Shown piece by piece: positions 1 to 56,707 of a stretch of 64,000 nt of DNA. The stretch lies in IMG/VR virus record IMGVR_UViG_2528311002_000006, positions 25,162-89,161 of that record; one strand, 5' to 3'. The DNA comes from a virus (Duplodnaviria; Caudoviricetes). The notes below the pieces were generated by a model. The model had not been told where the DNA came from. It saw nothing but the letters and a program-made list of their open reading frames with translations, and did not search any database. Each line of letters starts with the position of its first letter. The stretch's first letter is position 1. The position numbers and the translations under genes are program-made.

Positions 1-3000
1 TGGGCCGGGCTCATCTTGGATGCAGCCGAGGACACATTCAGGCGCTTACGCACATCGGGCAGGCTCTTCTTGTCGATCACGCGGCCCAGCAGGCGGCTGC
101 CGTCCACAGTCATAGTCCGCGCCACCTGAATGGAGCCATCCGTCTTCAAGCGATCCCAGATCGGCAGCATGGCGCCAACGATCATGTGCTTGCGCTCGGT
201 GTAGGTCTTGGGGCGGGCCTCGTTTTCTGCAGCCCAGAGCTTCATGGCCTCGGCCTTGGTCGAACCACGGAATGCCTTGGCAATCTCTGGGGCGGTCTTC
301 GACTGGACACTGCCCGTGCCGTAGAAGCGGAAGCGATCGACAACGGCACCTTCCTTGGTGGTTGACTTGCCTACCAGAGTCTTTGCATAGACCTTGCCCG
401 ACTTCACGTTCACCACGTACTCAGCCTTTTGCAGAGAATCCGGGAATGGGTAGATGGTGGTCGGCTGGGTCAGTTCCAGCTCAACCAGGCGGGTTTCGGC
501 GCCCGAACGCGGGTCGGTGTATGCCAGGTCATCCGCCACCACTCGTGACTCCAGCGCGCGAATCGTCTGCAGGCCAGCATCAAACTCGCCACGCTCCACC
601 GCCATCTCCACTTTCTCTTCCATGCGCAGCATGAAGGCATCGAACACTTTTTCCTGCATATCCAGCTTGAGGGACAGCATGCGGTTCAGGAAAGTGCGTG
701 TATCGGGCATCCGGTCTTCCGCGATGCGATTGGTTTCCTCGTCAATGATGCTTTCCAGCCCAGTCTGGCGCAGAAACTCCGCGAAGCTGATGCCGTCCAG
801 CTGCTGGTGCTGACCATCCTTGAAAAATTGCTGCACAGCCTGAGTCGCATAGATGGACTCCAGATTGTCCTTTTCGCTGAACATGCCCTGATTGGCAGTA
901 TCACGCTGGCCCTTGGTCAAAGCGCCAAGCTGATCCAGCCGGCGAGCGATGGCTGAAAGGAAGCGCTTCTGCGAAGGCACGTTGGTGGATGCCAGAAAGT
1001 AGTGAGGCGCGCTGGCCTGGTTGGTACGGTGAGTGCGGCCGAACCCCTGCACCGCTTTATCCGCACGCCAGCCGGGCTGGATCAGATAGTGGCTGCGCTT
1101 GCGCTTGTTCTTCTGCGTGTTGTCCGCGTGGAAGGAATAGCCGGTACCGCCCGCATCCGAGAACACCAGAATCGGCTTTTGGTCAGCCATGAAAGCATTG
1201 GCATCGGCGCGGGCCGATGCGGGGCCGCGAGACTCGAGTTGGGCTCGGAGCTCGCCATCCTTGTCCAGCTTGCGCACCACGCGCTGTGTGCGGCCGGTGA
1301 CCTCTGCCACCTTATCCACGCCGAAATGGTTCAGCACAATCTCCAGTGGGCCATCGGGGACGCGGATGTCCTTGAGATCCTTCAGGAGAGCTTCGCGCAT
1401 GGCCACGGCCTCCCGGTTGATGACCGGGTTGCCTTGCGAATCCTTGGCAGGCACGCGGATTTTCTTGCCCGAATCGTCTTCCTGCTCCTCGAACTGGGTA
1501 ACAGGGAACGACTTTTCAACCATCTGCATCAGCACATCGCGTGGCGTGAGATCCAGCTCTTCCAAGTCGGCGGACTCGTCTTCCTCCCGACGCTTGGCGA
1601 TTGAGCGGTTCTGCTGGGCCTCGTTGGTGTTGACCAGCTGCAGCACCAGGGCCTTGCCATCGGCAACGTCGCGCTCCATCTGCTCGAGCACCGAAGGCAT
1701 TTGCATGCTGGTGATGACCTGGCTGAAGAAGCGCTGCTGTGCTCCCCAGTATGCGGACATGGCTGCGCTCTTGGCCGAGGAAGAGCCCTTGCCGTTTTCG
1801 CCCACGGCACCCGTGGTCTTCAAAGCAGCGTCAATGTTCTGCAGCGTGACCTGCCACGCCTCAGCCAAACGGTTGTAAATGTCCTGCTGCAGCGGTGACA
1901 GCTGATGCTCAACGCGCGAATACGTCACGCCCTCAAAGGAGAGGCTACGTGCCATGTACGCCCCCATCTGTTTCAGATCGCGCGCCACCAGCTCCATAGC
2001 TGCCAGACCGCCAGCGGTCATTTCAGCAATGAAGTTCTGCACACTGGCAAAAGGTGTTGCCGGGCCCCACAGGCCCAGACGAGTGGCGAAAGACAGGTTG
2101 GAAACCTGGGTCGCACCAGTTGCGGACACGTAGACCACTCGGGCATTGGGCAGACGCTTTTGCAGCTCGACCACAGCCAAGGCCTGGGCGGAGGGCTGGG
2201 ACTGGCCTCGCGTGCCCTTCTGGGCTACAGCATTGCCGGCGTTATGCGCCTCATCGAAAGCAATCACGCCGTCGAAGTCCTTACCCAGCCAATTTACCAG
2301 CTGATCCAGGCGGGACTGCCCTTCCTTCTTGCTGCCCTTGGCCGGCTGCGCGGTGCGGCCCGACAGCCAATCACTCTGGCCACCGATGGACTCCACGCTG
2401 GTATAGCGGATGAATTTCAGCTCACCGCCCACCTTCACCCAGACCTTGCCGCCGTCATCCTTGGGGTCGATGTGATCCAGAGGGAATGTGCCGCGGCCAT
2501 TCGTAGTGACCACATCCAAGCCCTTGGGGAACTGCTTGGCGAACTGTGCCTTGGTGATGGGAGCGGCAACATTCTCCTGAGACTTCGCGCCGCTGCGCAA
2601 AGTGGCATAGCTCAGGAATGCGATACCCTGATCAGCGTTGATCTGCTCTTCTGCCTTGGTCTTGCTGACACTGAAGATCTGCTTGGGGTCGCCACCGATG
2701 CCCGAGAAATCGCGCTGTGCATCTGGCATCAGTCCGGGCTTTTCCGAAATCCAGACCGCCTTTTCACGGCCCTGGCGCATATTGTCCAGAATGATGCCCG
2801 AGATCTCGCGCCCCTTGCCCACTCCGGTGCCGTCACCGATGAAGAAGCCGCGACGATAGGCGACATCCTTCCCGTCAACGGTCACGGGCTCCAGCAGCTC
2901 CTGATGAGCCTGGCCGGCATAAACGACTGCCTCAATCTGGGCAATCGACAGCAGGCCTTTTTCAATGGTTTCCTTGGGCAGGTTCGGCGTGTATGTCGGT

Positions 3001-6000
3001 ACGGGCGGCAACACGGCGGCCATGGCCGAGGATTGCACCAGCGGGCCGGGGTGCGGCTTGGCACCGGGTACTTGCAGACGCTGGGGCTGGTAGGACTCAA
3101 AGATCGAGTCGCTCAGGCCAGCTGCGGGATCGCCGGTCTGCTCAGTCGCCTGAATGCTTACAGCTGATTGGGCGGCATCAGATCCGCTACCTCCTGCAGC
3201 AGCAGCATCGCGGCCTCCTCCAGCGTCGTCGTTTCCAGCAGTTCGACCTGTGCCAGATTCTGAGCCATTGTCTCTGGTTCCTCCAGATCCGCCAGCGCCG
3301 CTGCGCCCTCCACTTCCTGCGCCCAGCCCCTGTCCCCGGCCAGATTTTGCGCGGCCCACATCAGAACGCTGGTCACGGCCAGATTGTTCGGGCTGTGCGG
3401 AACCCCGGCCTGCTTGAGAAGACTCAGCAAGTGCATACTCTGCGGCGTCGAGTTCAAGTCCGTCACGATCGTTTGACGGGAAAACAGATTCTGGTCGGTC
3501 ATTGCGGATCTCGGCAAGGCTGCCAATGAGGTCACTGTAAGTCTTGGCAGGAGTTGTGACAATAGGTCGATGGGACGGCTTCACCTTGTCGATCACCAAA
3601 ATGGCGTTGTCGAAGGTCGTGCCGTACTTGGCGTAGCCGGAACCATCCATGGGGATCACGGCGCGCACGTCATACTTGGCGCGAATGCCCTTCCACCAGT
3701 CGGCGAAGGCCGGGCGGTCGAGATTCATGCCCTCACCCACGATGGCCACCAAACGGCCACCATCTGCCAGGCGCTTCAAGCCCTGCTCAACATGCTGGGC
3801 GCCGACATGCGTGTCACGCTTGCCTTGAATGCGACCAGCGGTCGCGCTGAAGGGTGGGTTCATCACCACCACGGAAGGGATCTCCGTCACGGGCAGGATG
3901 TTATCGATCTGCTCAGCGTTCTCCGTGAAAACCTTGGCTGCCGGGAACACCTCACGCAACACGGCTGCACGGCGGCTGCTGAGCTCATTCAGGATCAGCT
4001 TGGCACCCGCATTCTTGGCAAAGGCCGCCAGACCTCCGATGCCAGCGCTGGGCTCCAGCATCGTGTCGCTGCTGTCCATGTTTGCCGCCCAGTTGGCTGC
4101 ATAGGCCAGGGCTGGAACGGTACTGAACTGCTGGAACTCATCTTGTTCCGCAGTGCGCTTCGTCTGAGTCGGCAGCATCTGCGTGATGCGGTGCAGACGT
4201 TCCACGATGATGTGAGCTGCATCCTGGGTGGCGTTCGGGTTGAACTCTCCGGGCCGGGACAGAATGAATTGGTTGACCCCCGCCTCCATGGCGTCGTAGG
4301 CATCCTTGGGCGTGTACTTGCCCTCAGCCTGCGTGCCTCCGAAGGCGGAATCAGCTTGTTCAAACAATGCGCGCCAGTCGAAACTGCCGTCAGCCGCGCC
4401 GCGCTCCAGCTGGGACTTCACCCAGTCGGCCAGTACGCCAGAGGGGCTGCGAGCAGCGCCAGCAGCTGGCGCCTTGCCCAATTGCGCGGTCAGGCCCTCA
4501 TCCTTGGCGAACTGGATGGCGTAATCCTTGACCCCATCGCCAAAGTTCTGGATCAGCAGCTTGAACAGATCCTTGAGCGACTTGCCAGCTGCTTGGAAGG
4601 ATGCGAGCGCAGCCTTGAAATGCGGCTTGGCCGCCTTGTAGGTTTCCTCATCGAAGCCGGCCGGGAAGGAGTTCAGACGCCCGCCCTTGCCGCCGCCGAA
4701 CAGCTTGGCCAGGCCCGACAGCGCTTCATTGGCACCGGTCACGCCCAACTTAGCAGCCTCGGCGATCAACTTGGCCGCGGTCTTGTCTGCCTGTCCGGGC
4801 ACAGCTTGAGCAGCAACAGCAACAGTTTCGTCGAAAGCGGCTGCTTCGTGGGTGGCCGGCACATTCGGCTGTTCCTGGGTTTGCTCGCGCAACTCGGCTG
4901 CCGCCTGATCAAAGATTGCACTCAGATCGTCATCGGACAGGGGGCCACGGGATTCCGAAGGCGCAGGAGCATCCACTACCGCGGGCTTGCTCAGTGCCTC
5001 GAGCTCGGCCAGAGCCTGCTCGGCCATGGCATCTACCTTGGCTTTGTCCTCAGCCTGCTTCTCGAGCTCGAGACGGGCCTTTTCCTCCGCAGCCATGGCG
5101 CGCTCTTCCTGCACCTGCTCGAAGTAGGCCTGCATACCCTCCTTGGATAGGAGCTCCCTGCGGCGTACTTCTCCGGCGCCAATGTCGGCGGACAGGTTCT
5201 TTTCAAAGTCCGCTACGGTCACAGTGGGCTTGCCATCGGTGAACTTCACGGACTTGGCCAGAGCCGTCAGGTACTGCCCAAACACGACCCGCTCTGCACC
5301 GGTGGGATAAGGCGTGCCGCGATAGCCGCTGGCCTGTGTCACCTTGCCATCGCCCACCCAGTCACGGTTGACCAGATAAGAGTTGGTGCCGCCCAGGCTG
5401 TCCGCAGACCAGGCCTCAACGGCGCGTGCCAGCAGTTCGGCGTCGTTGCCCCAATAGTCCTTGCCCAGTTTGTCCGCATTTTCTTTGTAGGCCGTCAGTC
5501 CACGGCGGGCGCCGGAATTGGCGTAGTAGCGCAGGCCTTGGATGGCCGCATCCACCTTGTCTTGGTTCTTGTTGCCCTGCCAGTAGGAGCCGCCCACCAG
5601 GAAATTGCGGGCCACGCGCTCCCAGTCGGAAGCCTCATAGGCCTTGAATTTGAAGGCGTTAAGGATCATGGCCTTGACTCGATCCCATTCGCCGCCCAGG
5701 TTGTGGTCGAGTGCATGAGCCCACTCGTGATACACCGTGCCGTCGCCCTTGGTGTTGGTCAGGTTCATGACCTGCACGCGGCCATTGGGCCCGGGGTGGT
5801 TGGGACTGAAATGCGCAGCGAACTTGCCATGACCCAGCGCGCCCACAGTGAAGTGCAACACGCCGCCCAGACCGATGTTCTTTGGTGCAATGCCGAAGTG
5901 TTCAGCTAGATCCATGAAGGCGTCGAAGGCGTAGTTCAGGTGATCTTGGTCGTTCTTGGCTCCGACCCAGTTGCCAAAGCCCACATCCGCGAAGCCGAAC

Positions 6001-9000
6001 AGTGCCTTGAACTGCGCGGGCGTCACATCCTTGCCGCCGCGATGATCCTTGGGCATGGCGCGATCGACACGATCCAGCTTTGGCGGTGTCAGCGGCGTGG
6101 CGCGCGTGGGCAACTCATGCGTTGCCTCGTTCGCAATCAGGCCCGAGGCCCAGGGGCCGGCCGCACGGAACTTGGTGAAATCGTAGGAGTCGCCATTCCA
6201 CACTCCACGGTCAAACACTCCACCGCCGTGAACGCCGTACAGCACACCGTCCAGGCGATCCGCGTTGATACGCTCATAGCGGCTGTAGTAGCTGTCCCGG
6301 CTGCGGGCTTTCTCTTGGTGCTGCTCTGCGACCATGGTGTCCACAAAGCGCTCAGCAACCTCCTTCAACGAACTGGCGCCATCAAGGAAGGCCGTGAGCT
6401 GCTGCACCTTCTCTATATAGAGCTCGGCAGCATCGCGCAGCTGAGCCATGCGGAACACCGGGTCGGTCTGCCACTGCTGGCGCTGCTCGATCGACATGGC
6501 GCCGGGGTAGCGCTTGCCCTCCAGAACGAACTCCAGATTTTCTGCATCCCTGCCCTTGCGGCCCACGGACACAGAGCCATACCAGCTGGATCGGCCGTCG
6601 AACAGGAACTGCTTGAAAGTCTTGGTGACGCCGCGCAACTGGGTCACGTATGCCACCCAGCCAGGGGTAGAGCCTTCGGGTAGATAAGGCGAAAACAGCT
6701 CGGCGCGGTTAGTGGCCGCTTCGATTTGCTTCCATGCCTTTTGCATGTCGGACTCGCCGGCCTTCATCTGGGCCTTCATGGCCTCCCAGTGGCGACGCAG
6801 ATCCACACCCGTGTTTTCCAGCTTCTTGCGGCGCTTGCCTTCAAACCAGGCTGCGCCCTCCTCCGTACCGATCCATTCGCCCGCTGCCTCATAGCCCTTC
6901 ACCATGTCCACCAGGCCGGCCCCGGAGAGAGTGCTCTTGGTTTTGCCGGCCAAAGCATGGTCAAAGCCCAGCAGGAAATCGCCCTTGCTCTGGGGCGATA
7001 CGTCCTCGCCAAAGGCATTGCCCAAGGCCTCGGACTGGGCATCAGCCTTGACCTGGGGATCGCGCGCCGCTTCCTTGGCCAGCTGTGCCGCATTGGCCTG
7101 CAGCTGCTTATGGATGGCGCGAGCCAGACGGGAAATCTGAACCGGGTTGAGCGCAGTGCTGGCGTCGCGGGAGCCGAGTTGCAGCTTGAGCGCTGCGGTC
7201 ACCTGATCCAGGCTCTTCCCGACCAGGCCCCCGTTGGCCCCTGTCAACTGGCGGAAAAGGTCGCGCTCCACTTCGCGGGAAGCCTTGCGGGCTTCTTGTT
7301 CAGCGGCCTTCTTAACCGCAGCTTCACGCTCGCTGCGCTCGGCCTCTGTCCTTGTATTTGATACCTTGTCGATGGCAGACCGGGAATCCAGCTTGAAACC
7401 CGCACCACTGGGACTATGAAGGACTTTCAGAGTTGTTGGACTCTTGTAGTCAGATTCATAGCCAGCGCGTGTCATCACACGAACTTGCACCTGATCTTTG
7501 TCCAAGGCATCGTGAAACTCTGCGATCTGGGCATCGGATGGCTCCGAATACGAGAGTGTCGCAGCTCCGCGATCAAGCAACTTCAAGCGCCCGTTGGCAT
7601 CCAACATGTACCAATCGCCGCCAACCACCTCCATGACTGGATAGCGAACACCGCGCTCTGTGACAACGCCCTTTCCTGCCGCTTTGATAGCCTTCCACAA
7701 GGCATCAGAGCTTTCAGCAAGACGCGGCTTGGCATTCGCACTAGAGCCGTGATCCTCCGTTTTCTGGGTTCCGCCCTGAGTGTGTTCCGGTGCCTTGCCA
7801 GCGGCAGCAGCCCTGTTCTTGTGCGCCCGCTCTTTGGCCAAACGCAGTGCCTCGGCCACGCCGGCGCGATCGCGCGACAGACCGTTGACTGCAAATTTCC
7901 CGCCTTCCTTGAGCGAAATCGTGTCCCCCATGGGAACGATCTCGAAGCCGTCGGGCAGTTCCTTGCGGTGCTGCGCCAGCGCCTTGAGGAAATCCGCGTT
8001 CGACTGCGTAGCCGATTCGGGTGCCTCAACGCCGCGATCAGCAGTGACGCTCTGTCCAGTCTCAGCACCGTCAGCAACGGTCGAGCTCGGAAAGTCGTGC
8101 GCCAGCTTGACGAGCTCATCGATGGGAGCACTCAAGCGGATCGTCCGCACATCCTCACCGTTCTCCAATGCAGCGACCCACTGGTGATGGCCATCCAACA
8201 CATGACCGTCACTGGAAGCCAGAATGGCGCGATTGCCACCGGCATAGGCCTTGGCCTTCTCTACCTTTTCGCGGCTGAACTCGCGCTGAGTGGGCTTGAG
8301 GCTGGAAGCAGGCACTGTCGCCTCTTCATGCGCCACGCCGCGCGCGTTCATGAAATTGACCATGGCGCCGCGGTGCTCGGCCTTGATCTGGGGCATTTCC
8401 GCGCGAGGCACGGCCTTGGTACCCGACTCAGGGGCGAACTCGGCCCAGCCATCGCCCAGATCGCGCCCAGCAATCCCGGTACCGGGATTCTGGTTGGCGA
8501 CCGACTGGCCCGCGCCAGCCGTTGCCGCCTCTGCCTCAGCTGCAGCCACCGCCGCCTGCTTGGCTTTGATAAGAAACGCTTTTTCCTGCTGCACGACCTC
8601 ATAGCCGTCCTGCAGATCGTTGTCCGCCAGGAAAGCTTCTGCCTTGGGCTTGGAGAAGAAGTAAGCCCCCTTCTCGCTGTTGATGCGCTCGATGGCTTTC
8701 TGCTGGCGCTGGCTCGCAAGGTTCGACGCAGGAGTGGCGGCGGCCGGTGCCGGCGCCGCTGCAGGAGCTTGAGCAGTTGGGGCTGTGAAGCCGGCCATGC
8801 TTTCATGCTCGCGGTCTTTGAGGCCGAAGACCTTTTGACGATCGGTCAGCACGCCGCCGTCGCGCAGTGCCTGGGCCACCTGGCCACGAGTTGCGCCGGC
8901 AGGAACAGTGATGGGCTCGCCGCTGTCGTAATCCAGAGCCTCATAGTTGCCCAAATACACAACGCCGTCGCGCACAGACACGGCATCACCCGTCTTGGGG

Positions 9001-11519
9001 GTGCTGCCGATGGTCATCGCGTCGGAGCCCTGCTGACCTGCCCGCTTCGCTTCCGAATCTATAGCATTATTCGATTCACCAGATTCATTCTGGGCGCTAT
9101 ATGTTGGCGAATCGTTTCTTTGTCCGCCGTAATCCGCTCCTGCTTTTGCAGCAACTTGAGCTGCTGGCGCTTGGCCTTGCGCTGCATTCTGCGCTGGTTC
9201 TTGCGGGCGATTGTTGATAGCTGGGGCGGAGCCATGGCCTACGCCTTCCCCCAAATGCCCAGGTGCAGTGCCAATGCCTGAAACGCTCTGGTCTTGTCCG
9301 CCAGCTTCGCCTTGTCGGCCAACTTCGCTTCCTTGCGCTGGTCTTGCTTGCGCCTGTTGCGCTGTGATTTGCTGGGCTTGATCGGCTTCACGGCCATCGA
9401 GATCTCCGTTGATGTTGAATGGCGATGCCGCTGGAGCGGCGTTCTCCCTGCTGGACGAAAGTGCCAACAGTGGGTTCTGGAGCGACAGGGGTTGAGCCGC
9501 ATCAATGGAAGCAGCCGCTGGTTCGGACTGCGCTGCATCGACCGCCATTGCGGCGGCTTTCGAGTTGGGCCCGGCGCTGGGATCGATGCCCAGACGCTCT
9601 GATGGCTTGCGCCGAACCAGGGACTCCAATGCCGCGTTGTCGGCAAACTCATCGACCAGAGGGTTTTGAGCGGCGAGATCACCCGGCAGTGGCGCGGGCG
9701 TGGATTTCCCGGTGAATGCCGCATGCGCATCGAGCAGACGACGAGCGCGTGCAGCCTCGTCCTGCGCGAGCGGTTGCTCACCAATGCGAGTCAGGGCCTC
9801 GTTCAGATAGTTGATTGACTGGGCCGTGCCCATGGCGCCGCTGTCCATGGCGTTCTGCAGACCGGAAAGAATTCGGCTGGTGCGCACCTGGGCGTCAACG
9901 GCGGCTGTGGAAACCGCTTCACCAGGCACTGCTGCCGCCAGCTCTTGTCCCATTTGCTGGCCAGCAATACCTGCAGCCTCAACGGCCGATGCGGGCTGCT
10001 GCTTCACGTTGGCCTCAAGCCAAGCGTCTTCCATGGTGGTGCGCACAGCATCGACAGTCTGCTGATCGCTGAACTGCGTGCCGCCGCGAATGGCTGCTTG
10101 AACAGCGCCCAGATGATCTTGCAGCGGCTGGTACGGCAGCCCGAAGGAGTGATTGCGATAGTCCTCTTGCCAGGGCACGAGATCGGGAATCTCAAACTCG
10201 TAGGGCTCGGGAGAGGAATAGCCCAGCAAACGGGCGCGCTCCTTCATCATCCGGCGCTCGCCGGCAGGGGTACCATCATTGAGACTGCTCAGGTACGACT
10301 CCATTTCGGAGAGGCGTCCTGTGGAACCGTCAGGATGGGTGAACAGGGTATCGGGGGGCTGATTGGTCAGCAGCAGAGGCGCCGGGGTGCCTGCCTCGGG
10401 CGCACCATCCGCCGAGCCCGTCCCGTTCGCGCGCTTGTCGCGCAGCGGGCTGGTCGCAGCCTGGTAGGCCTTCTGGCCGCCGTACATGAGGGCCGATTGC
10501 CCCACGGACGAGATCGCTTCCAAAGCCGCGTTCTTGGTGTCCCAGTCTCCGGTGGCAACGCCCTGGCCCACGAACTCGCCAGCAAACTCGCCTGCAGGAT
10601 CAAGGGCGGCAACGCCCACGTTACGTGCGACATTACCTGCTCCTGAGGTTGCTGCCTGGAAAGTCGCGTCCTTGGCGATCAGATCCTTGAAAGCGTCGGA
10701 CTTCTGAGCAGCCTTGACAGCCGCGCCATCCGTCAAGTCAACGCCCATCTTCGTAAGGGCACGGTCTGCTGCAGCTCGTGCAGGCGCGTTCAGGATCTTG
10801 CCACCAGCGCCAGCAGTGGCCGCGTCAACGGCACCGATGATGGCGCCCTTGATGGCAGCATCACCCAGCGCTGCATCGCCTTGCTCGCGGGTGAACTTCT
10901 CCACGGCCGCGGTGTCTTGAGGATTGATGCCGGCCTTGTTCAGGCGATCCATGAGCATGCCACCGCCCTCGACCAGCGTATTGCCAGCAGAGGCGCCCGC
11001 CCACGCGCCAGCAGCCAGACCAACGGGCCCCGCAGCCGCGCCGCCCGCCACACCACCGCCCACCATACCGACCATCGGTGCCAGCATATTGGGCACCTGG
11101 GCAACCAGGCCATCGCCCATGGCTTTGGCATTGCCGGCCACCGAGCGCACGCCACCTACCCAGTTGGGAGCTTCCTTCCAATCCTTGGCGATTTCACCGG
11201 CAACACCCTTGATGCCACCTGTAATGCCGTCGCCTTGCTCCCATGCCTTGGAGAGCTCCTGACCCTGCTGGCTCCCTGGGTTGACGCGGTTGTAGTCGTC
11301 AAACTCCTTGACGCGGCGTGCAACAGCTGCAGCATCACCCGTAGCCAGATCCTTGGTGATGCCAACCGAGTTGGTCATCGACTTCCAACCGCGAACCAAA
11401 GCGTTATCTTGCTCGGGCGCACCCAAGAAGTTATCAATGTTGGAAGTGGCTTTATTAGGTGCTGCGGGCGTGGCACCGGTCGATGGCTTGCCGCTCAGGA
11501 AGTCGTCAATTTGGCTCAT
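1..11519 (-). CDS. Giant polyvalent virion/DarB-like protein, >3839 aa, 3'-truncated (ParB-like, LPD1-like, N6-adenine MTase, Strawberry-notch SF2 helicase)
   Basis: ATG at 11519 (MSQIDDFL); same frame reads at both ends; absent from ORF track because there is no stop in the window. Motifs: DGHHQW (~8180), HEWAH (~5720), LEPSAGIG (~4045), NPPF (~3855), GDGTGVGKG (~2825), FDEAH (~2250). Confidence 0.9.
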   Translation of the reverse strand, partial: MSQIDDFLSGKPSTGATPAAPNKATSNIDNFLGAPEQDNALVRGWKSMTNSVGITKDLATGDAAAVARRVKEFDDYNRVNPGSQQGQELSKAWEQGDGITGGIKGVAGEIAKDWKEAPNWVGGVRSVAGNAKAMGDGLVAQVPNMLAPMVGMVGGGVAGGAAAGPVGLAAGAWAGASAGNTLVEGGGMLMDRLNKAGINPQDTAAVEKFTREQGDAALGDAAIKGAIIGAVDAATAGAGGKILNAPARAAADRALTKMGVDLTDGAAVKAAQKSDAFKDLIAKDATFQAATSGAGNVARNVGVAALDPAGEFAGEFVGQGVATGDWDTKNAALEAISSVGQSALMYGGQKAYQAATSPLRDKRANGTGSADGAPEAGTPAPLLLTNQPPDTLFTHPDGSTGRLSEMESYLSSLNDGTPAGERRMMKERARLLGYSSPEPYEFEIPDLVPWQEDYRNHSFGLPYQPLQDHLGAVQAAIRGGTQFSDQQTVDAVRTTMEDAWLEANVKQQPASAVEAAGIAGQQMGQELAAAVPGEAVSTAAVDAQVRTSRILSGLQNAMDSGAMGTAQSINYLNEALTRIGEQPLAQDEAARARRLLDAHAAFTGKSTPAPLPGDLAAQNPLVDEFADNAALESLVRRKPSERLGIDPSAGPNSKAAAMAVDAAQSEPAAASIDAAQPLSLQNPLLALSSSRENAAPAASPFNINGDLDGREADQAQQITAQQAQARPAQGSEVGRQGEAGGQDQSVSGIGTAPGHLGEGVGHGSAPAINNRPQEPAQNAAQGQAPAAQVAAKAGADYGGQRNDSPTYSAQNESGESNNAIDSEAKRAGQQGSDAMTIGSTPKTGDAVSVRDGVVYLGNYEALDYDSGEPITVPAGATRGQVAQALRDGGVLTDRQKVFGLKDREHESMAGFTAPTAQAPAAAPAPAAATPASNLASQRQQKAIERINSEKGAYFFSKPKAEAFLADNDLQDGYEVVQQEKAFLIKAKQAAVAAAEAEAATAGAGQSVANQNPGTGIAGRDLGDGWAEFAPESGTKAVPRAEMPQIKAEHRGAMVNFMNARGVAHEEATVPASSLKPTQREFSREKVEKAKAYAGGNRAILASSDGHVLDGHHQWVAALENGEDVRTIRLSAPIDELVKLAHDFPSSTVADGAETGQSVTADRGVEAPESATQSNADFLKALAQHRKELPDGFEIVPMGDTISLKEGGKFAVNGLSRDRAGVAEALRLAKERAHKNRAAAAGKAPEHTQGGTQKTEDHGSSANAKPRLAESSDALWKAIKAAGKGVVTERGVRYPVMEVVGGDWYMLDANGRLKLLDRGAATLSYSEPSDAQIAEFHDALDKDQVQVRVMTRAGYESDYKSPTTLKVLHSPSGAGFKLDSRSAIDKVSNTRTEAERSEREAAVKKAAEQEARKASREVERDLFRQLTGANGGLVGKSLDQVTAALKLQLGSRDASTALNPVQISRLARAIHKQLQANAAQLAKEAARDPQVKADAQSEALGNAFGEDVSPQSKGDFLLGFDHALAGKTKSTLSGAGLVDMVKGYEAAGEWIGTEEGAAWFEGKRRKKLENTGVDLRRHWEAMKAQMKAGESDMQKAWKQIEAATNRAELFSPYLPEGSTPGWVAYVTQLRGVTKTFKQFLFDGRSSWYGSVSVGRKGRDAENLEFVLEGKRYPGAMSIEQRQQWQTDPVFRMAQLRDAAELYIEKVQQLTAFLDGASSLKEVAERFVDTMVAEQHQEKARSRDSYYSRYERINADRLDGVLYGVHGGGVFDRGVWNGDSYDFTKFRAAGPWASGLIANEATHELPTRATPLTPPKLDRVDRAMPKDHRGGKDVTPAQFKALFGFADVGFGNWVGAKNDQDHLNYAFDAFMDLAEHFGIAPKNIGLGGVLHFTVGALGHGKFAAHFSPNHPGPNGRVQVMNLTNTKGDGTVYHEWAHALDHNLGGEWDRVKAMILNAFKFKAYEASDWERVARNFLVGGSYWQGNKNQDKVDAAIQGLRYYANSGARRGLTAYKENADKLGKDYWGNDAELLARAVEAWSADSLGGTNSYLVNRDWVGDGKVTQASGYRGTPYPTGAERVVFGQYLTALAKSVKFTDGKPTVTVADFEKNLSADIGAGEVRRRELLSKEGMQAYFEQVQEERAMAAEEKARLELEKQAEDKAKVDAMAEQALAELEALSKPAVVDAPAPSESRGPLSDDDLSAIFDQAAAELREQTQEQPNVPATHEAAAFDETVAVAAQAVPGQADKTAAKLIAEAAKLGVTGANEALSGLAKLFGGGKGGRLNSFPAGFDEETYKAAKPHFKAALASFQAAGKSLKDLFKLLIQNFGDGVKDYAIQFAKDEGLTAQLGKAPAAGAARSPSGVLADWVKSQLERGAADGSFDWRALFEQADSAFGGTQAEGKYTPKDAYDAMEAGVNQFILSRPGEFNPNATQDAAHIIVERLHRITQMLPTQTKRTAEQDEFQQFSTVPALAYAANWAANMDSSDTMLEPSAGIGGLAAFAKNAGAKLILNELSSRRAAVLREVFPAAKVFTENAEQIDNILPVTEIPSVVVMNPPFSATAGRIQGKRDTHVGAQHVEQGLKRLADGGRLVAIVGEGMNLDRPAFADWWKGIRAKYDVRAVIPMDGSGYAKYGTTFDNAILVIDKVKPSHRPIVTTPAKTYSDLIGSLAEIRNDRPESVFPSNDRDGLELDAAEYALAESSQAGRGSAQPEQSGRDQRSDVGRAKSGRGQGLGAGSGGRSGAGGSGGTRDNGSESGTGRTAGNDDAGGGRDAAAAGGSGSDAAQSAVSIQATEQTGDPAAGLSDSIFESYQPQRLQVPGAKPHPGPLVQSSAMAAVLPPVPTYTPNLPKETIEKGLLSIAQIEAVVYAGQAHQELLEPVTVDGKDVAYRRGFFIGDGTGVGKGREISGIILDNMRQGREKAVWISEKPGLMPDAQRDFSGIGGDPKQIFSVSKTKAEEQINADQGIAFLSYATLRSGAKSQENVAAPITKAQFAKQFPKGLDVVTTNGRGTFPLDHIDPKDDGGKVWVKVGGELKFIRYTSVESIGGQSDWLSGRTAQPAKGSKKEGQSRLDQLVNWLGKDFDGVIAFDEAHNAGNAVAQKGTRGQSQPSAQALAVVELQKRLPNARVVYVSATGATQVSNLSFATRLGLWGPATPFASVQNFIAEMTAGGLAAMELVARDLKQMGAYMARSLSFEGVTYSRVEHQLSPLQQDIYNRLAEAWQVTLQNIDAALKTTGAVGENGKGSSSAKSAAMSAYWGAQQRFFSQVITSMQMPSVLEQMERDVADGKALVLQLVNTNEAQQNRSIAKRREEDESADLEELDLTPRDVLMQMVEKSFPVTQFEEQEDDSGKKIRVPAKDSQGNPVINREAVAMREALLKDLKDIRVPDGPLEIVLNHFGVDKVAEVTGRTQRVVRKLDKDGELRAQLESRGPASARADANAFMADQKPILVFSDAGGTGYSFHADNTQKNKRKRSHYLIQPGWRADKAVQGFGRTHRTNQASAPHYFLASTNVPSQKRFLSAIARRLDQLGALTKGQRDTANQGMFSEKDNLESIYATQAVQQFFKDGQHQQLDGISFAEFLRQTGLESIIDEETNRIAEDRMPDTRTFLNRMLSLKLDMQEKVFDAFMLRMEEKVEMAVERGEFDAGLQTIRALESRVVADDLAYTDPRSGAETRLVELELTQPTTIYPFPDSLQKAEYVVNVKSGKVYAKTLVGKSTTKEGAVVDRFRFYGTGSVQSKTAPEIAKAFRGSTKAEAMKLWAAENEARPKTYTERKHMIVGAMLPIWDRLKTDGSIQVARTMTVDGSRLLGRVIDKKSLPDVRKRLNVSSAASKMSPA
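3158..3502 (-). CDS. Candidate overprinted 114-aa acidic helical protein in +1 frame of the giant gene
   Basis: Protein-like alternative-frame ORF over a G/S/R/D-rich linker; start uncertain. Confidence 0.4.
   Translation of the reverse strand: MTDQNLFSRQTIVTDLNSTPQSMHLLSLLKQAGVPHSPNNLAVTSVLMWAAQNLAGDRGWAQEVEGAAALADLEEPETMAQNLAQVELLETTTLEEAAMLLLQEVADLMPPNQL
9059..9235 (-). CDS. Candidate overprinted 58-aa basic peptide
   Basis: GGGGGAAGG SD-like 8 nt before ATG; MAPPQLSTIARKNQRRMQRKAKRQQ... Confidence 0.4.
   Translation of the reverse strand: MAPPQLSTIARKNQRRMQRKAKRQQLKLLQKQERITADKETIRQHIAPRMNLVNRIML
9239..9397 (-). CDS. Candidate overprinted 52-aa basic peptide
   Basis: GGAG 6 nt before ATG; MAVKPIKPSKSQRNRRKQDQRKEAK... 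Confidence 0.4.
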   Translation of the reverse strand: MAVKPIKPSKSQRNRRKQDQRKEAKLADKAKLADKTRAFQALALHLGIWGKA

Positions 11520-24742: not shown

Positions 24743-25626
24743 CCGCCCTCCCCACTGCCCAGCAGCCTCGCCTGCAATGCCAGCAGCTCAGAAGTAGCCA
24801 GGCCAGCCAGCGCCTCCTGCGCAGCATTGCGTTGCTTGTTGTGAGCCTCATACAAGCCAAGGTGCTTGAACAGCTTTTCAGCGATGCCCACCTTGTCATG
24901 CATCTGGATCTCGATACCGTTCTTGCCGTGTTTGGCACCGGCGTAGAGGCTTGCGGCTTCGGGCGAGAGCTTGCGGGTGTCGTGCAACACCACACGCGAG
25001 TAGCCATCACCACCACACTCTGGGCAAGTGGGATGGGGTGGCAACAGAGGGTTGAAGCCAATACCGCCCTCTTCGTCAAAGTCGAGCGGAACCTTGCCTG
25101 AGTCGATCCACTTTTCACGGGCGGCATTCATTTCCGCCACAGTGCGCTGGCGCTTGTGTCCCTCGCCATAGCAATGGCGGCAGCACCCCACACGGACTTC
25201 AACCAGCTCGCGGGCATCGGCCCGGAACATTTGCCACACCTCACGCAGAACAACGTCCGCAGTAATCTCCGTGCGTTGCTGACGCTCTTGTTTTCGTAGC
25301 TGAATTTCAGCAGCTATATTAGGTTTTATTAGGTTTTCACTACCAATTACAGCTGCTGTCTTCTCGCTGTATCCCGCCCGGATCGCAGCCTTGGTTGCGT
25401 TGAGATCAATCAGATACTCGTCAACAAACCGACTCTGTAAATCTGTCAGATCGCTTGCAGGCCTTGCGCTAGCAGCTATCGTTTTTGACAAGGGCTTAGC
25501 CCGTCCCTTGGTTGCGTTCTTGGCCTTAGACGCAGCAATGCCCACGGCCTTTTTAGGTGCAGTGGGCTTTTTGGGGGTCGCTGTCTTCTTCGGTGCAGGC
25601 CGTTTGCCTGCCGGTGATGTGGCCAT
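24739..25626 (-). CDS. Terminase small subunit
   Basis: LTDLQSRFVDEYLIDLNATKAAIRAGYS; CRHC/CPEC Zn motif. Confidence 0.9.
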   Translation of the reverse strand: MATSPAGKRPAPKKTATPKKPTAPKKAVGIAASKAKNATKGRAKPLSKTIAASARPASDLTDLQSRFVDEYLIDLNATKAAIRAGYSEKTAAVIGSENLIKPNIAAEIQLRKQERQQRTEITADVVLREVWQMFRADARELVEVRVGCCRHCYGEGHKRQRTVAEMNAAREKWIDSGKVPLDFDEEGGIGFNPLLPPHPTCPECGGDGYSRVVLHDTRKLSPEAASLYAGAKHGKNGIEIQMHDKVGIAEKLFKHLGLYEAHNKQRNAAQEALAGLATSELLALQARLLGSGEGG

Positions 25627-41534: not shown

Positions 41535-41590
41535 GCCAACCTTCCCAAATGGCCCGCCAAGCGCGGGCCAGCGTATTTTCGGAGCCCAGG

Positions 41591-42577
41591 ATGCTACAGA
41601 ACATGACCACCTATCGCATTGTCCCAACGTGGCAAGGCGATCTGCAGGTGCTGGAGGACGCCCTGCAAAAAACGGTGTTTGCCGAGTGCGGCGCTACCCA
41701 AGAGCGCTCTGTGGGCTGGGTTCCGCCGCGTGGAGAAGAAAACGGCCCGCTGGCTGAGAGCGTGGCAGGTCAGTGGATGCTCCGCTTTAAGAGCGAGTCC
41801 AAGCTGCTTCCCGCCAACGTGCTCAATCGCAAGGTCATCGAAAAGGCCGCAGCTATCGAGAAGGCCGAAGGCCGCAAGCCCGGCAAGAAGGAAAAGCGCG
41901 ACCTCAAGGACGAGGCCAAGCTGGATCTACTGCCAATGGCCTTCACTCAGCAGGCAAGCATGTGGGTCTGGATCGACCCGCAGGCCCATACCCTGGTGCT
42001 GGATACCTGCGCGCAGGGCCGCGCCGATGAAGTGGTAACGCTGCTGGTCGCAGGCCTGCCCGGCTTTGCCCTGGCACTGCTGGACACCCAGACCAGCCCT
42101 CAGGCCGCCATGGCGCACTGGCTGATGACGCAGGAGCCGCCCGCAGGCTTTTCCATCGACCGCGCCTGCGAGCTGAGAGCCGCTGATGAATCCAAGGCCA
42201 TCGTGCGCTACTCCCGCCACCCTCTGGACATTGACCAGATCCGCGAGCACGTTGAACACGGAAAGATTCCAACCCGCCTGGCCATGACCTGGGACGACCG
42301 GGTGAGCTTTGAGCTGACGGACGGCCTGCAGCTCAGGAAGATCTGCCTGCTCGACGCAGTGATGGACGGCAACAGCCAGGACGATGGCGGTTTCGATACC
42401 GATGTGGCGATTGCCACGGGCGAGCTGTCGCGCCTGATCCCCGACCTGATCGAAGCACTGGGCGGCGAGGGACGCACCGGCCTGGGCGACCTGCCCGCAG
42501 CGTTGCGGGTTCCGGCCAGCATCACTGGCCCCAAAGCCGCGCCTACGGATGGCGCCCCGGGCGAAGCCCCGTTTTAA
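41591..42577 (+). CDS. rdgC: Recombination-associated protein RdgC
   Basis: SVGWVPPRG, ESKLLP, LAMTWDDRVSF, LIEALGGE. Confidence 0.92.
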   Translation: MLQNMTTYRIVPTWQGDLQVLEDALQKTVFAECGATQERSVGWVPPRGEENGPLAESVAGQWMLRFKSESKLLPANVLNRKVIEKAAAIEKAEGRKPGKKEKRDLKDEAKLDLLPMAFTQQASMWVWIDPQAHTLVLDTCAQGRADEVVTLLVAGLPGFALALLDTQTSPQAAMAHWLMTQEPPAGFSIDRACELRAADESKAIVRYSRHPLDIDQIREHVEHGKIPTRLAMTWDDRVSFELTDGLQLRKICLLDAVMDGNSQDDGGFDTDVAIATGELSRLIPDLIEALGGEGRTGLGDLPAALRVPASITGPKAAPTDGAPGEAPF

Positions 42578-44039: not shown

Positions 44040-46109
44040 ATGAAGCGCGACGACTTCACTCTGCCGCTGGACTTTGGGCGCGAGTTGATCATTGACAACT
44101 TCGCCGGCGGAGGCGGCACCAGCAAGGGTCTTGAATGGGCCTTTGGGCGCCATGTTGACATCGCCATCAACCATGACCCCGAAGCGCTGGCCATGCATGC
44201 GATCAATCACCCATACACCAAGCATTTGTGCGAGAGCGTGTGGGAGGTTGACCCGATTGCCGTCACTGGCAATCGACCGGTGGGCCTGGTCTGGCTGTCA
44301 CCGGATTGCAAGCATTTCAGCAAGGCCAAGGGCGGTACACCTGTTTCCAAGAAGATACGCGGCCTGGCTTGGGTGGGGCTGCGCTGGATCGCCAAGACCA
44401 AGCCGCGCATCATGATGCTGGAGAACGTCGAGGAGTTCCAAGACTGGGGGCCCCTGGTGGTGGATGCCAACGGCAATGCCCGACCAGATCCCAAAAAGAA
44501 GGGCCGCACCTTCAAGTCGTTTGAGCGTCAGCTCCGAGCCCACGGCTACAGCGTCGAATGGCGCGAGCTGCGCGCCTGCGATCAGGGTGCACCCACCATT
44601 CGCAAGCGCCTGTTCCTCGTTGCGCGCCGAGACGGCATACCCATCCACTGGGGCGGGCCGTCCCATGCCACACCAACGGATCACCGAGTTATTGCTGGGC
44701 TGCTTGCGCCACACCGGACTGCTGCACAGTGCATTGATTTCGACTTGCCCGCCGAAAGCATCTTCGGCCGCAAGCGCGATCTGGTGACCAATACGCTGCG
44801 TCGAGTCGCAAAGGGAGTATTTCGTCATGTGCTGAATACGACCACGCCCTTTATCGTGAACACCCGCAACGGTGAACGCGAGGGGCAAGAGCCTCGTATC
44901 CGCGATGTGGACGCCCCGTACTGGACTGTGACCGGCCAGGGATCTCAGGGCGCGCTCGCGGCTCCAGTGCTCGCCCCGTTCATCAATGAGCACGCCAATG
45001 CCAGTAATCAACGCACCATGCCGGCCGACCAGCCGCTGCGCACGGTATGCGCGCAAGTCAAGGGTGGGCACTTCTCCGTAGTTACCTCGGAGCTGCACCC
45101 ACTGATCTCCGAGGATCGCGCCGCGCAGATCATCGTGCCTCTGAGAGGCACCAGCGAGCAGCACCTGGGAGCGCACAGCGTTCAAACGCCCTTGTCCACC
45201 GTTTCCGCGGGTGGCCGCCACCATGCCCTAGCTGCGGCCCACATCACCAAGTTCAACACTGGCTCTGTCGGTAGCTCGCTGAATGAGCCCTTGCCCACCG
45301 TCACGGCAGGCGGGAAACCGAAGCGCCCCAGCACGGGCATCACTATGGGGATGGTCGCAGCGCATTTGGTAGACATGGGCCACGGCGAAGGGCCTGCAGG
45401 GGGGAAGCGTTGGAGTCACGGAACGCGCAACATTGAAATGCCGTTGAACACCGTCACGGCCAGCGGCGCAACCAGTGCGTTGGCCGCCGTTTGCCTGGAG
45501 CAGGCCTATGGGGGTTTCTATGACGGGGATGGTCGCACGGCCGACGAGCCGCTTTCGACCATCACCACCAGCGGAACCCAGCAGCGCCTGATAACTGCTT
45601 GCCTTGTCAAGTATTACAGCGAAGGCGGCCAGGACAGCAGCTGCAGCCAGCCCATGCATACCGTCCCCACGAAGGCGCGCATGGCCCTGGTGCAAACCGC
45701 CAAGGTACCTGCTTCCCGCCTGGCGCCCGAGCATGCCCAGCGCGCCAAGCTGTGCGCTGACCTGCTGCGCGAGCATCTGCCCGATCAGTTCCCAGAAGCC
45801 GCTGACGTTGTGCTGATGTGGCACAGCGGCCAATGGTGGGCCCTGGTTGACATCACCCTTCGCATGCTCAAGCCCCGTGAGCTCGCCCGAGCCCAAGGGT
45901 TTCCCGACAGCTACCAGATTGAAGAGATCCCAGACCCGGCGATCTTGTTCAAGGATGGTGTGCAGGCTGTAGACGATCCACGGGACATCCCGCGCATCAA
46001 GCTCAGCACCACCGCCCAGGTGCGAATGATCGGCAACAGCGTCAGCCCGTATATGGCAGCGGCGCTGGCAAGGTGGAATTTTCAACACGAAGCTCGGATG
46101 TATGCCTGA
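44040..46109 (+). CDS. DNA (cytosine-5) methyltransferase
   Basis: DNFAGGGG, SPDC, ENV, RKRLF, IGNSV. Confidence 0.92.
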   Translation: MKRDDFTLPLDFGRELIIDNFAGGGGTSKGLEWAFGRHVDIAINHDPEALAMHAINHPYTKHLCESVWEVDPIAVTGNRPVGLVWLSPDCKHFSKAKGGTPVSKKIRGLAWVGLRWIAKTKPRIMMLENVEEFQDWGPLVVDANGNARPDPKKKGRTFKSFERQLRAHGYSVEWRELRACDQGAPTIRKRLFLVARRDGIPIHWGGPSHATPTDHRVIAGLLAPHRTAAQCIDFDLPAESIFGRKRDLVTNTLRRVAKGVFRHVLNTTTPFIVNTRNGEREGQEPRIRDVDAPYWTVTGQGSQGALAAPVLAPFINEHANASNQRTMPADQPLRTVCAQVKGGHFSVVTSELHPLISEDRAAQIIVPLRGTSEQHLGAHSVQTPLSTVSAGGRHHALAAAHITKFNTGSVGSSLNEPLPTVTAGGKPKRPSTGITMGMVAAHLVDMGHGEGPAGGKRWSHGTRNIEMPLNTVTASGATSALAAVCLEQAYGGFYDGDGRTADEPLSTITTSGTQQRLITACLVKYYSEGGQDSSCSQPMHTVPTKARMALVQTAKVPASRLAPEHAQRAKLCADLLREHLPDQFPEAADVVLMWHSGQWWALVDITLRMLKPRELARAQGFPDSYQIEEIPDPAILFKDGVQAVDDPRDIPRIKLSTTAQVRMIGNSVSPYMAAALARWNFQHEARMYA

Positions 46110-53613: not shown

Positions 53614-53663
53614 CTAAACGCACTCAAGCCCCGAACACCGGGGCTTTTCTTTTGGAGGGCCTG

Positions 53664-54734
53664 ATGGCCGAAAACACCAAGATCGAGTGGACAGACCACA
53701 CGTTCAATCCATTCATTGGCTGCACCAAAGTATCCCCAGGCTGCGACAACTGCTACGCCGAAAACCTCATGGATACCCGCATGGGGAAGGTCGTATGGGG
53801 GCCGAAGGGCGAGCGCGTTCTCACCAGCCCTGCGAACTGGAACAAGCCGCTGAAATGGAATGCCAATCACGCCGCGTTCTTCGCAGAGCACGACCGCCGT
53901 CAGCGCGTGTTCTGCGCGTCTCTGGCCGATGTGTTCGACAACGCGGTAAACCCGAGCTGGCGCATTGACCTGTTCGGCCTGATTCTGAAAACGCCACACC
54001 TAGATTGGCTGCTGCTGACCAAGCGCATAGGCAACGTGAAGCCCATGCTTGACGAGATGGCCCACGGCAATGACCCAGACCTGAGCCTGCTGGACATGAT
54101 GCCGCTGCCCAATGTCTGGATCGGGGCCACGGTGGTGAATCAGGAAGAGGCAGACCGGGACATTCCCAAGCTGCTGGCCGTTCCTGCCAAGGTGCGCTTC
54201 CTGAGCATGGAGCCACTACTTGGCCCGGTGAACTTGGAGCAAGCGTGCGATTTGGCTGAGGCCCAAGTCTGCAAGGGGACATGGCGGGACATGGCCGACC
54301 CAATCAAATGCGCAGCAGCACTTCGCCGTGGAAGTGTGGCTTTGCTGGACTGGGTGATCGTCGGTGGCGAGTCCGGGCCTGGCGCGCGCCCCATGCACCC
54401 CGACTGGGCGCGCTCCCTGCGTGATCAGTGCCAGGACGCCGGCACGGACTTTCTGTTCAAACAGTGGGGCGAGTGGCTTCCAGGTCAAAACGAGGCCCAC
54501 CCTGCAGATGGTCGAAAAGTCGCACACCACCAAGACGGTCGCTGGGGCCCCACCCAAACAAAGATCAGAGACAGCAACTACGTGACATGGGATGAGGATG
54601 GCGTCCTGCATCACGGCAGCCTCATGCAGGCGCCAAGCAGTGTCCGTGCCGATGCCTGGGCAGAGCGTGTCGGCAAGAAAGCCGCTGGTCGCCTGCTCGA
54701 CGGCCGCACCTGGGACGGAATCCCTCAAACCTGA
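53664..54734 (+). CDS. Phage Gp37/Gp68 (DUF5131) family protein
   Basis: IEWTDHTFNP.IGCTKVSPGCDNCYA, LLLTKR, SMEPLL, WVIVGGESG, FKQWG. Confidence 0.92.
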   Translation: MAENTKIEWTDHTFNPFIGCTKVSPGCDNCYAENLMDTRMGKVVWGPKGERVLTSPANWNKPLKWNANHAAFFAEHDRRQRVFCASLADVFDNAVNPSWRIDLFGLILKTPHLDWLLLTKRIGNVKPMLDEMAHGNDPDLSLLDMMPLPNVWIGATVVNQEEADRDIPKLLAVPAKVRFLSMEPLLGPVNLEQACDLAEAQVCKGTWRDMADPIKCAAALRRGSVALLDWVIVGGESGPGARPMHPDWARSLRDQCQDAGTDFLFKQWGEWLPGQNEAHPADGRKVAHHQDGRWGPTQTKIRDSNYVTWDEDGVLHHGSLMQAPSSVRADAWAERVGKKAAGRLLDGRTWDGIPQT

Positions 54735-56132: not shown

Positions 56133-56707
56133 ACCAGACAAAAACACTGGCACAAGGCGCTGACCTGACCCCCGAGACTTGGGCCGACTTCGTTGCTCGC
56201 CTGCGGCATGACTGCGTGGGTGAAGGCGTGCGCGACCACTACACAGCAGACGCTGTGTTTCTGGTACAGCAAGCCGTGGAGCATTTGGTTCCAGAGGGCT
56301 ATGGCGGTGATCCTGTGATCTTTGACGGCTGTGAGCATTCGGAGCCAGTTTCTGAATTCTTTGAGAGCTGCTGCGAGGAGACCAAGGCCAAGCTCAATGA
56401 AGCCTGCGATGGCTCCTTTGTGGACGCTGACGAGTACGACCAAGAGCAAGCCCTGAAAGAGCACCTTCCCGATTACTCGCTGCTGTACGTCACGACCCGT
56501 TGGGAAACATTGAATCAGCACTTCACCATGGATGCTGCCGAGGCTTTCATCAAGCGCAAGAAGCACGACTACCGCAAAGGCCTGCGCGTCTATGTGGACG
56601 CCAGCACCTATAGCTGGGAGCTGAACGCCATCAAGGCCGCGATCCTGAGCGGGCGTCTCGGCCTGCTCCCAGAAACCGAGATTCAAGGAGGCGTCCCATG
56701 CAACTGA
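56129..56707 (+). CDS. Ead/Ea22-associated-like hypothetical protein
   Basis: TADAVFLVQ...FTMDAAEAFIKRKKHDY..LRVYV. Confidence 0.6.
   Translation: MNQTKTLAQGADLTPETWADFVARLRHDCVGEGVRDHYTADAVFLVQQAVEHLVPEGYGGDPVIFDGCEHSEPVSEFFESCCEETKAKLNEACDGSFVDADEYDQEQALKEHLPDYSLLYVTTRWETLNQHFTMDAAEAFIKRKKHDYRKGLRVYVDASTYSWELNAIKAAILSGRLGLLPETEIQGGVPCN

Follow-up and report, generated by a model that had tools for sequence, protein, structure and literature searches.

The virus record IMGVR_UViG_2528311002_000006 of IMG/VR (Duplodnaviria; Caudoviricetes) is 89,161 bp long, and the stretch of it analysed here (positions 25,162 to 89,161, 64,000 nucleotides, numbered from its first letter) is referred to below as the window. 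One end of the window is taken up by a giant open reading frame (ORF) on the minus strand (11519..3), which runs for 3839 codons within the window and whose 3′ end is left open at the window edge. Lying wholly within this gene, in its +1 frame, is a second and far smaller ORF (3158..3502, minus strand, 114 codons and a TAA stop codon), which in all likelihood is a genuine overprinted protein-coding gene, one stretch of DNA being used in two frames. The giant protein matches the Pfam models LPD1 (E = 6e-9), AAA_34 (3e-112, best stretch at residues 3064–3217) and Helicase_C_4 (2e-82, residues 3392–3651), and a Pfam scan of the whole protein at E ≤ 0.01 gave no methyltransferase model. It carries an NPPF adenine-methyltransferase motif at residues 2554–2557 (window 3849–3860) that is invariant in the methyltransferase alignment A3, where N205, P206, P207 and F208 are among the invariant columns. 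The C-terminal part of the adenine-methyltransferase domain occupies 3492..4148 (minus strand) and finishes with the terminal EIRNDRP motif (3492–3512), and the strawberry-notch-type helicase part (567..3116, minus strand; alignment A4) extends from an LSDSIFESY motif (3090–3116) to the end of Helicase_C_4. Between the two, at about residues 2677–2800 (3120..3491, minus strand), the main frame passes through an interdomain linker that is rich in glycine, serine, arginine, aspartate and alanine, has few hydrophobic residues and reads ...GRGQGLGAGSGGRSGAGG... across the region in question. A plasmid homolog of the giant protein carries the annotation ‘bifunctional class I SAM-dependent methyltransferase/DEAD/DEAH box helicase’.

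Since the predicted protein is at least 3839 amino acids long and combines LPD1, the NPPF motif, and AAA_34 with Helicase_C_4, the giant gene is assigned on its domain content to the DarB-like polyvalent class, as a polyvalent protein with a DarB-like methyltransferase–helicase dyad in which the helicase is of the strawberry-notch type. DarB-like methyltransferase–helicase dyads of polyvalent proteins, a class linked to anti-restriction, are described in the parts of Iyer et al. (2017; PMC5512222) covered here, which also cite Methylomonas polyvalent proteins with a strawberry-notch-like ATPase.

The nested ORF starts with an ATG (3502–3500) inside EIRNDRP, the last conserved methyltransferase motif, and terminates with a TAA (3160–3158) some 14 codons before LSDSIFESY, the first conserved motif on the helicase side. 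The stop-to-stop run around it in the +1 frame is 140 codons, and initiation at a TTG at 3562 would give a product of 134 rather than 114 amino acids. The 114-residue product has a net charge of -12 and an isoelectric point of 4.05, and 16 of the 20 leucine codons in its frame are CTG. GC content at codon positions 1/2/3 is.65/.42/.73 in the nested frame and.67/.47/.70 in the giant gene as a whole; in the overlap the +1 frame thus shows the genome's usual pattern, while main-frame GC at position 3 (GC3) drops from 0.70 to 0.415. An initial annotation, made from the window's letters, had placed a 114-residue ORF at 3158–3502 in the linker between methyltransferase and helicase, had described the main frame there as rich in glycine, serine, arginine and aspartate and the product as acidic, and had noted that the frame is shared with ORFs at 9.0–9.4 kb. 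The coordinates, both translations and the charge of the window's own copy agree with this description, and the +1 run at 9790–9242 is indeed in the same frame. The composition of the linker can be viewed largely as a shadow of the nested gene: a +1 product rich in leucine (CTG), alanine, glutamate and glutamine would force G, C or A at main-frame position 2 and so yield a peptide rich in glycine, serine, arginine, aspartate, alanine and proline. Ribosomes in frame 0 would read the stretch as a disordered linker joining the adenine-methyltransferase and strawberry-notch helicase domains, and in frame +1 the same stretch would encode a separate protein of about 115 amino acids with its own start and stop.

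The nested gene recurs at the same place and in the same frame in relatives of the giant gene. Of 44 informative related loci from phage contigs, metagenomes and plasmids, 40 are matched by a profile of the nested family, in each case in the +1 frame of this linker. These comprise all eight viral loci, which are 44–52% identical to the window in the main protein except for one at 93% (L001); 30 of the 32 metagenome loci extending over the linker (L042 and L043, the other two of the 34 taken, end before it); and two of four plasmid-borne giants, those of Thioflavicoccus plasmid pTHIMO01 and of a Methylomonas plasmid. A tblastn search with the Methylomonas plasmid copy found four plasmids, in each case at the locus of the giant gene; a strawberry-notch annotation underlies the match in two of the four, and the other two are unannotated there. 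Six of the loci are exact duplicates, leaving 35 distinct sequences including the window. The suggestion in the initial annotation that linkers of polyvalent proteins may host nested genes therefore gains support from homologs, from +1 conservation in these 40 loci and from the substitution counts given below; it had named +1-frame stops in homologous linkers as the observation that would count against it, and in the same 40 of 44 loci the +1 frame is open and encodes the same family. In a separate observation, the giant frame of L035 (contig FWPV01002116.1) is stopped at about 1540, upstream of the methyltransferase end, and is open only from 1543 onward, which may reflect a split gene or an assembly error.

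Substitutions between close relatives change phase over the nested ORF. In a gap-free alignment of 6900 nt between the window and L001, differences at main-frame codon positions 1/2/3 number 55/29/304 outside the nested ORF and 24/4/5 inside it (chi-square p = 1.4e-16); main-frame position 1, where the inside differences concentrate, is position 3 of the alternative frame. Counted as codon changes, the differences inside the ORF are 19 synonymous and 8 non-synonymous in the alternative frame and 4 synonymous and 26 non-synonymous in the main frame, which places the alternative frame under purifying selection in the two-frame comparison that the initial annotation had suggested. The rate of change at main-frame position 3 falls from 0.139 outside to 0.043 inside the ORF, and the switch in phase ends at the nested stop codon. 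Three other pairs behave in the same way (each p < 1e-7), with counts inside and outside of 11/4/2 and 6/9/57 (L018–L022), 25/17/14 and 28/20/119 (L025–L047), and 20/10/6 and 40/30/187 (L002–L019). Strain variants in public runs (40 of 102 rows) fall 4/0/2 inside and 5/3/26 outside (Fisher p = 0.016). In a scan of the whole giant gene a strong switch occurs here only, with a weaker one at residues 701–800 and a near-flat bin (6/4/5) at residues 2201–2250. Selection thus acts mainly on the +1 product, and the main-frame peptide need only stay stop-free and hydrophilic. A threefold suppression of main-frame synonymous change could, in itself, stem from any overlapping element, and an RNA or DNA element in the linker (a structure, packaging signal or regulatory site) would impose it in place of a second protein. 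The constraint is, however, strictly three-base periodic in the +1 phase (24/4/5) and coincides with an ORF of conserved start and stop, and the protein is conserved down to about 25–30% identity, where the nucleotides can no longer be aligned; such an element is a practically negligible explanation.

The product itself belongs to an unannotated protein family. With the 134-residue reading of the nested ORF as query, a phmmer search of 1.84 billion representative proteins returned 60 matches at E ≤ 1e-3, of which 24 were at E ≤ 1e-10; the absence of homologs, which the initial annotation had named as a possible refutation, is accordingly not what was found. All but two of the 60 are 81–134 amino acids long, and most begin within a few residues after query residue 21, which corresponds to the ATG at 3502, and extend nearly to the stop. 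Alignment A1 contains 55 of the 60 matches and the window (the short fragments P0039, P0043, P0046, P0047 and P0051 were dropped), shows few gaps, and has M1, L16, N17, L41, W49, P76, L83 and A97 conserved at ≥90%, the conserved positions falling into the pairs and groups L-N, W-A, D-P and E-A-A. The homologs lie mostly on short metagenome contigs, one being an NCBI ‘hypothetical protein’ of Variovorax, and a profile of the close family matched at least eight proteins. Aligned with hhalign, this close family (A1) and the distant nested ORFs (A5) are related with 98.3% probability (E = 1.9e-14, 104 columns). Searches of the nested product against Pfam, PHROG, NCBIfam and PDB sequences found no known family, and at E ≤ 0.1 no Pfam family was common to more than one of 56 members. 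The best PDB match of the A5 profile, a 19-residue HIV gp41 heptad (E = 0.007), was rejected as a chance helical likeness. As judged from these comparisons, the nested product represents a new family of proteins of about 115 amino acids. Searches by tblastn with the 114-residue product of the window gave nothing in plasmids or phages, and with the nested product of L003 nothing in phages. Fused longer forms of the family (502–2000 amino acids) were searched for and none was found, which is weak evidence. One 286-residue protein from Logan assemblies (P0049) carries the family domain in frame at its C-terminus, behind an unrelated region of 180 amino acids and an Asp/Glu-rich spacer, and has no Pfam match.

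What exceeds chance at this locus is conservation and the substitution pattern, not the open frame itself. When the codons of the linker peptide are resampled, no +1 stop arises in 84% of the trials, and synonymous shuffles leave the frame open in 67%; the giant gene contains five +1 stop-free runs of at least 140 codons, and long, junk-like +1 runs are present also in linkers of relatives that lack the family. The openness of the linker is unremarkable because a +1 stop requires T at codon position 2 of the main frame, which is found in 7–10% of linker codons vs 22% in the whole giant gene; the ORF could on this ground be an accident of a linker without hydrophobic residues, having few +1 stops and no functional product. 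Such an accident would leave unexplained the 60 homologs with a common start, a common stop and conserved tryptophan, proline and asparagine positions, the phase switch in four independent pairs, the threefold fall of main-frame synonymous change, and the conserved start, with its GGAGG upstream, that is described below. Openness is moreover improbable in relatives of lower GC content, where resampling gives a chance of only 0.006–0.055, and the product over 10 loci is 1e-7 to 8e-12. A chance ORF is for these reasons hardly credible. The same test applied in the other direction is informative about the host frame: resampling the codons of the nested protein leaves the main frame open in 6.3% of trials for the window and in a proportion of 0.000–0.110 per locus (product 1e-23 over 10 loci), and 34 of the 35 distinct sequences have no main-frame stop within the nested gene, the exception being a 1.2-kb contig of 2x coverage. 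Since the main frame is open despite a chance of 0–11% per locus, both products are kept.

The start of the nested gene is conserved as a start. Its translation-initiation region (3503..3522, minus strand) lies within the codons of the main-frame sequence SLAEIRND, and in the main frame the start motif across relatives is LLEG(I/V)R(N/D/H)(D/E/A)R. The start codon stands at the same position of this motif in all 35 distinct sequences, as ATG in 31 and GTG in four, and the ATG is composed of the last two bases of a NAT codon (Asn, Asp or His) and the G of the codon that follows. Since the main-frame residue varies between N, D and H, with the codon always being NAT followed by G, it is the ATG itself that is conserved. 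In most relatives GGAGG or GAGG is found 9–11 nt upstream, derived from the Leu-Glu-Gly codons of the motif, and a Shine–Dalgarno (SD)-like sequence was recorded in 29 of the 35 by script, and by eye also in L002. In the window and L001 the sequence upstream of the start is CAGCCTTGCCGAGATCCGCA|ATG, in which the SD sequence is degraded to GAGA; comparison with the relatives indicates that the window's lineage has lost the GGAGG. The initial annotation had called the ribosome-binding site weak, which holds for this copy and not for most of the family. Internal initiation at the conserved SD–ATG on a giant late mRNA would then yield the nested product. A sigma-70-like site (TTGTCA-17-TACAGT, 3562–3534, minus strand), matching the consensus at 9 of 12 positions, is located 32 nt before the nested ATG; one such site was found, against an expectation of 0.4 from shuffled sequences. 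In the SD-poor lineage a separate transcript of the nested gene could start from it, though a consensus match alone is not evidence.

Ribosomes could alternatively reach the +1 frame by a programmed +1 frameshift from the giant ORF, with the GGAGG as stimulator, giving a truncated isoform made up of the N-terminal domains, the methyltransferase and the 114-residue domain, without the helicase. SD-stimulated +1 frameshifting is known from prfB, the SD-like GGAGG here lies within a translated ORF just upstream of the +1 reading, and the weak ribosome-binding site of the window would matter less if no initiation were needed. This route is nevertheless very unlikely, because the start codon is conserved in position and in itself, as set out above, and because a +1 stop lies 1–8 codons upstream of the ATG in many loci (e.g., L003, L014, L020 and L033), leaving almost no room for a shift site. 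Most database homologs also begin at this methionine or within a few residues of it, and a copy in Variovorax persists without the surrounding giant gene.

Several observations weigh against an overprinted gene, or against parts of that reading. Taken by itself, the open nested frame of the window is what chance would give (0.84), and the window and L001 are without a good SD sequence, having GAGA only. Several of the profile matches in relatives are weak (E 0.006–0.03) and were scored on a small search space. Distant nested products do not exceed the main-frame peptides in global pairwise identity (means of 0.26 and 0.28), the low complexity of the latter producing spurious alignments; only closer pairs separate, at 0.93 vs 0.78 and 0.50 vs 0.27 for nested vs main, with BLOSUM scores of 221 vs 74. 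The more divergent pairs L025–L028 (51/45/54) and L047–L028 (50/44/47) show no excess at alternative position 3 inside the ORF, a flat pattern that fits saturation or dual constraint and is not positive evidence. One clade of four relatives, consisting of two plasmids (L013 and L015) and two metagenome contigs (L044 and L046), is without the nested gene. The RNA data consist of two short metatranscriptome contigs (3025–3277 and 3392–3514), for which DNA carry-over is possible and which are evidence neither of expression nor of a frame. Both are from one run (X15), which was found using this stretch, and they lie on or next to the nested ORF, with none elsewhere in 2500–4200. An ESM Atlas model of homolog P0006 is poor (predicted TM score 0.37, predicted local distance difference test 0.51), and gave no fold match above TM 0.5.

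The four gene-less relatives also bear on how the overlap evolved, and imply that the nested gene is dispensable for the methyltransferase–helicase fusion. Their linker is about 60–70 residues shorter: the distance between two flanking motifs is 124–138 residues in the gene-less relatives and 196–218 in the 6 of 34 gene-bearing sequences where both motifs could be located, and the gene-less +1 frames are junk-like or closed. In a tree of 38 rows, from which six exact duplicates and the 1.2-kb contig L049 were left out, a single branch separates the four gene-less sequences from all others (Shimodaira–Hasegawa-like approximate likelihood ratio support 95, 1 change). Midpoint rooting places them inside the gene-bearing diversity; the root was not inferred, and because the tree is unrooted, gain and loss of the nested gene are indistinguishable. 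A nucleotide search with 2400–4400 gave no match in phages and 126 plasmid records, over the methyltransferase and helicase parts only, with the linker unmatched; these 126 records are mostly alphaproteobacterial, and four plasmids have a detectable nested gene.

The Variovorax copy provides a view of the gene outside its host. In Variovorax flavidus (NZ_JASZYE010000006.1; L010, 8289–8624) the small gene occurs without a surrounding giant gene, near a Toprim/DUF3987 primase and an N6 methylase, and the family is found in one of 401 genomes of this organism's order, that one being the Variovorax genome itself. The -1 frame of the copy reads ‘KIRNERP’ followed by a glycine-rich stretch and is open for 203 codons; NCBI annotates the frame of the small gene as a 207-residue hypothetical protein, of which the N-terminal extension is probably spurious. 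An origin as an independent stand-alone gene was considered and is ruled out by the fossil main-frame motif and the glycine-rich reading. Because a fossil of the host linker is retained in its -1 frame, the Variovorax copy derives from the nested state.

The setting of the giant gene is that of a phage late region in the window and of a transfer region on plasmids. In the window it lies on the same strand as, and downstream of, packaging and structural genes, with the portal and the large and small terminase subunits (TerL and TerS) upstream, and the protein is probably delivered with the virion. Plasmid copies of the giant gene adjoin TraD and topoisomerase III, one of them on an MPF_T/MOBP plasmid. 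The portal is of the SU10 type, and the window also encodes a KilA-N protein, RdgC, two further DNA methylases and a Lar-like domain. The plus strand between 41549 and 59976 is rich in genes of DNA-modification or anti-restriction type, with RdgC (41549–42577), a C5 cytosine methylase (44040–46109), DUF5131 (53652–54734), an N6/N4 methylase with an Mrr_N domain (56698–57924), and a 525-residue protein with a Lar restriction-alleviation domain (58399–59976).

A second low-complexity linker of the giant protein lies at 9419–9120 (minus strand; about residues 701–800) and is marked by a dip of main-frame GC3 to 0.39–0.54. Compared with a 90% relative, it shows a weaker shift of differences to main-frame position 1 (4/2/2 and 15/6/6). 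Its +1 translation is basic and junk-like, with a conserved +1 stop at about 9240, beyond which a +1 ORF of 58 codons shows only conservative changes in its first 33 residues. This linker may hold another nested gene.

The nested gene is found in giants of phage type as well as in those on plasmids, its place being invariably between the methyltransferase and helicase domains, and the alignments of the family contain no conserved polar residue of catalytic type. For these reasons a role as partner or regulator is favoured, and the product is tentatively viewed as a chaperone, regulator or inhibitor that binds the methyltransferase–helicase module and is made from the same late mRNA; this idea is weakly held, at somewhat under half of the probability given to functions. 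It draws also on an analogy with phage lambda, in which Rz1 is fully embedded in the +1 frame of Rz and the two products work together. The nested product is mostly acidic and probably helical, a helical protein being what its composition suggests. The initial annotation had proposed that an acidic product could be a DNA mimic, and the product could then be an independent anti-defence effector that blocks restriction enzymes in the manner of Ocr or ArdA and is nested only for compactness and co-expression. The window product is very acidic, the median charge of the close family (A1) is -8, the phage carries anti-restriction-type genes (the C5 methylase, the N6/N4 methylase and the Lar-like domain), and the host gene is of the DarB-like class linked to anti-restriction (Iyer et al., 2017; PMC5512222, in the parts covered). 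Strong acidity is, however, not conserved: of 11 nested products whose net charge was calculated, 7, including L003–L008, have values of only -1 to -5. The DNA-mimic idea is not supported. The Pfam comparison of the 56 members, which found no family common to more than one of them, likewise gave no match to an Ocr or ArdA family, there are no PDB sequence matches, and a late, structural-side operon would be odd timing for a free early-acting inhibitor unless it is packaged. An anti-defence effector of this kind, the chief alternative on function, is regarded as improbable, and the partner function is preferred.

Like Rz1, the nested gene is fully enclosed by a second gene of the same strand, is read in that gene's +1 frame and has its own start. 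It differs in that there is no sequence relation, that the frame enclosing it codes for a disordered linker between domains of a protein longer than 3800 amino acids, that the embedded frame is the more constrained, and that the arrangement is found in phage-type contigs and conjugative plasmids with no link to lysis seen. Gene B in A and gene E in D of ΦX174 are overprinted genes of a small virus. Overprinting in small viruses and overlapping genes that arose de novo in RNA viruses are treated in PMC8227390 and PMC3494269, as far as the parts covered here go. The present case is like these in that both frames are open, one is more constrained and the codon-position signal is shifted. Small-virus genomes are, in contrast, tightly limited in size, whereas this phage record is 89 kb long, and the overlap lies at a point that makes hardly any demands on the sequence of the older frame. 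Ocr and ArdA share with the nested product its small size, the strong negative charge of part of the family and the anti-restriction genomic theme, and differ in having no sequence match to it and in that its charge is not conserved. Embedded out-of-frame genes are known in phages; to our knowledge, double-stranded DNA phages and bacteria very rarely have long genes nested completely within another gene of the same strand, and the rules of annotation pipelines remove such genes.

The host protein corresponds to the DarB-like dyad in having an LPD domain, an NPPF adenine methyltransferase and a superfamily 2/Sno helicase in one giant polypeptide, with the phage copy beside packaging genes and further copies on conjugative plasmids. 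The presence of a second gene inside the linker is a difference: it is not described in the portion of PMC5512222 covered here, where a term search of the text found ‘overlapping’ absent and ‘nested’ used only for a hairpin fold, and the literature searches made brought up no paper describing this nested gene. What is new is the protein family, its place in the interdomain linker of a polyvalent protein, the reversed constraint, with the embedded frame dominant, and its spread across phage-type contigs and conjugative plasmids.

The evolutionary evidence for the nested gene is unusually clean, extending over some 35 different sequences that come from conjugative plasmids as well as phage-type contigs, and the gene adds an unannotated protein family to a poorly understood class of anti-restriction-type polyvalent proteins. 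It is conceivable, though doubtful, that linker-embedded genes are a general design of polyvalent proteins that are injected or transferred, in which a disordered spacer joining two enzymatic domains doubles as the gene for a small controlling subunit acting as an immunity protein or chaperone. If so, the embedded subunit would keep the methyltransferase–helicase harmless or packaging-competent in the cell that produces it, with its dose tied to translation of the giant mRNA. A codon-position GC switch together with a substitution phase switch inside linkers offers a simple screen of all giant phage and plasmid proteins. The case also shows that a gene read in a different frame can cast its shadow as a ‘low-complexity linker’.

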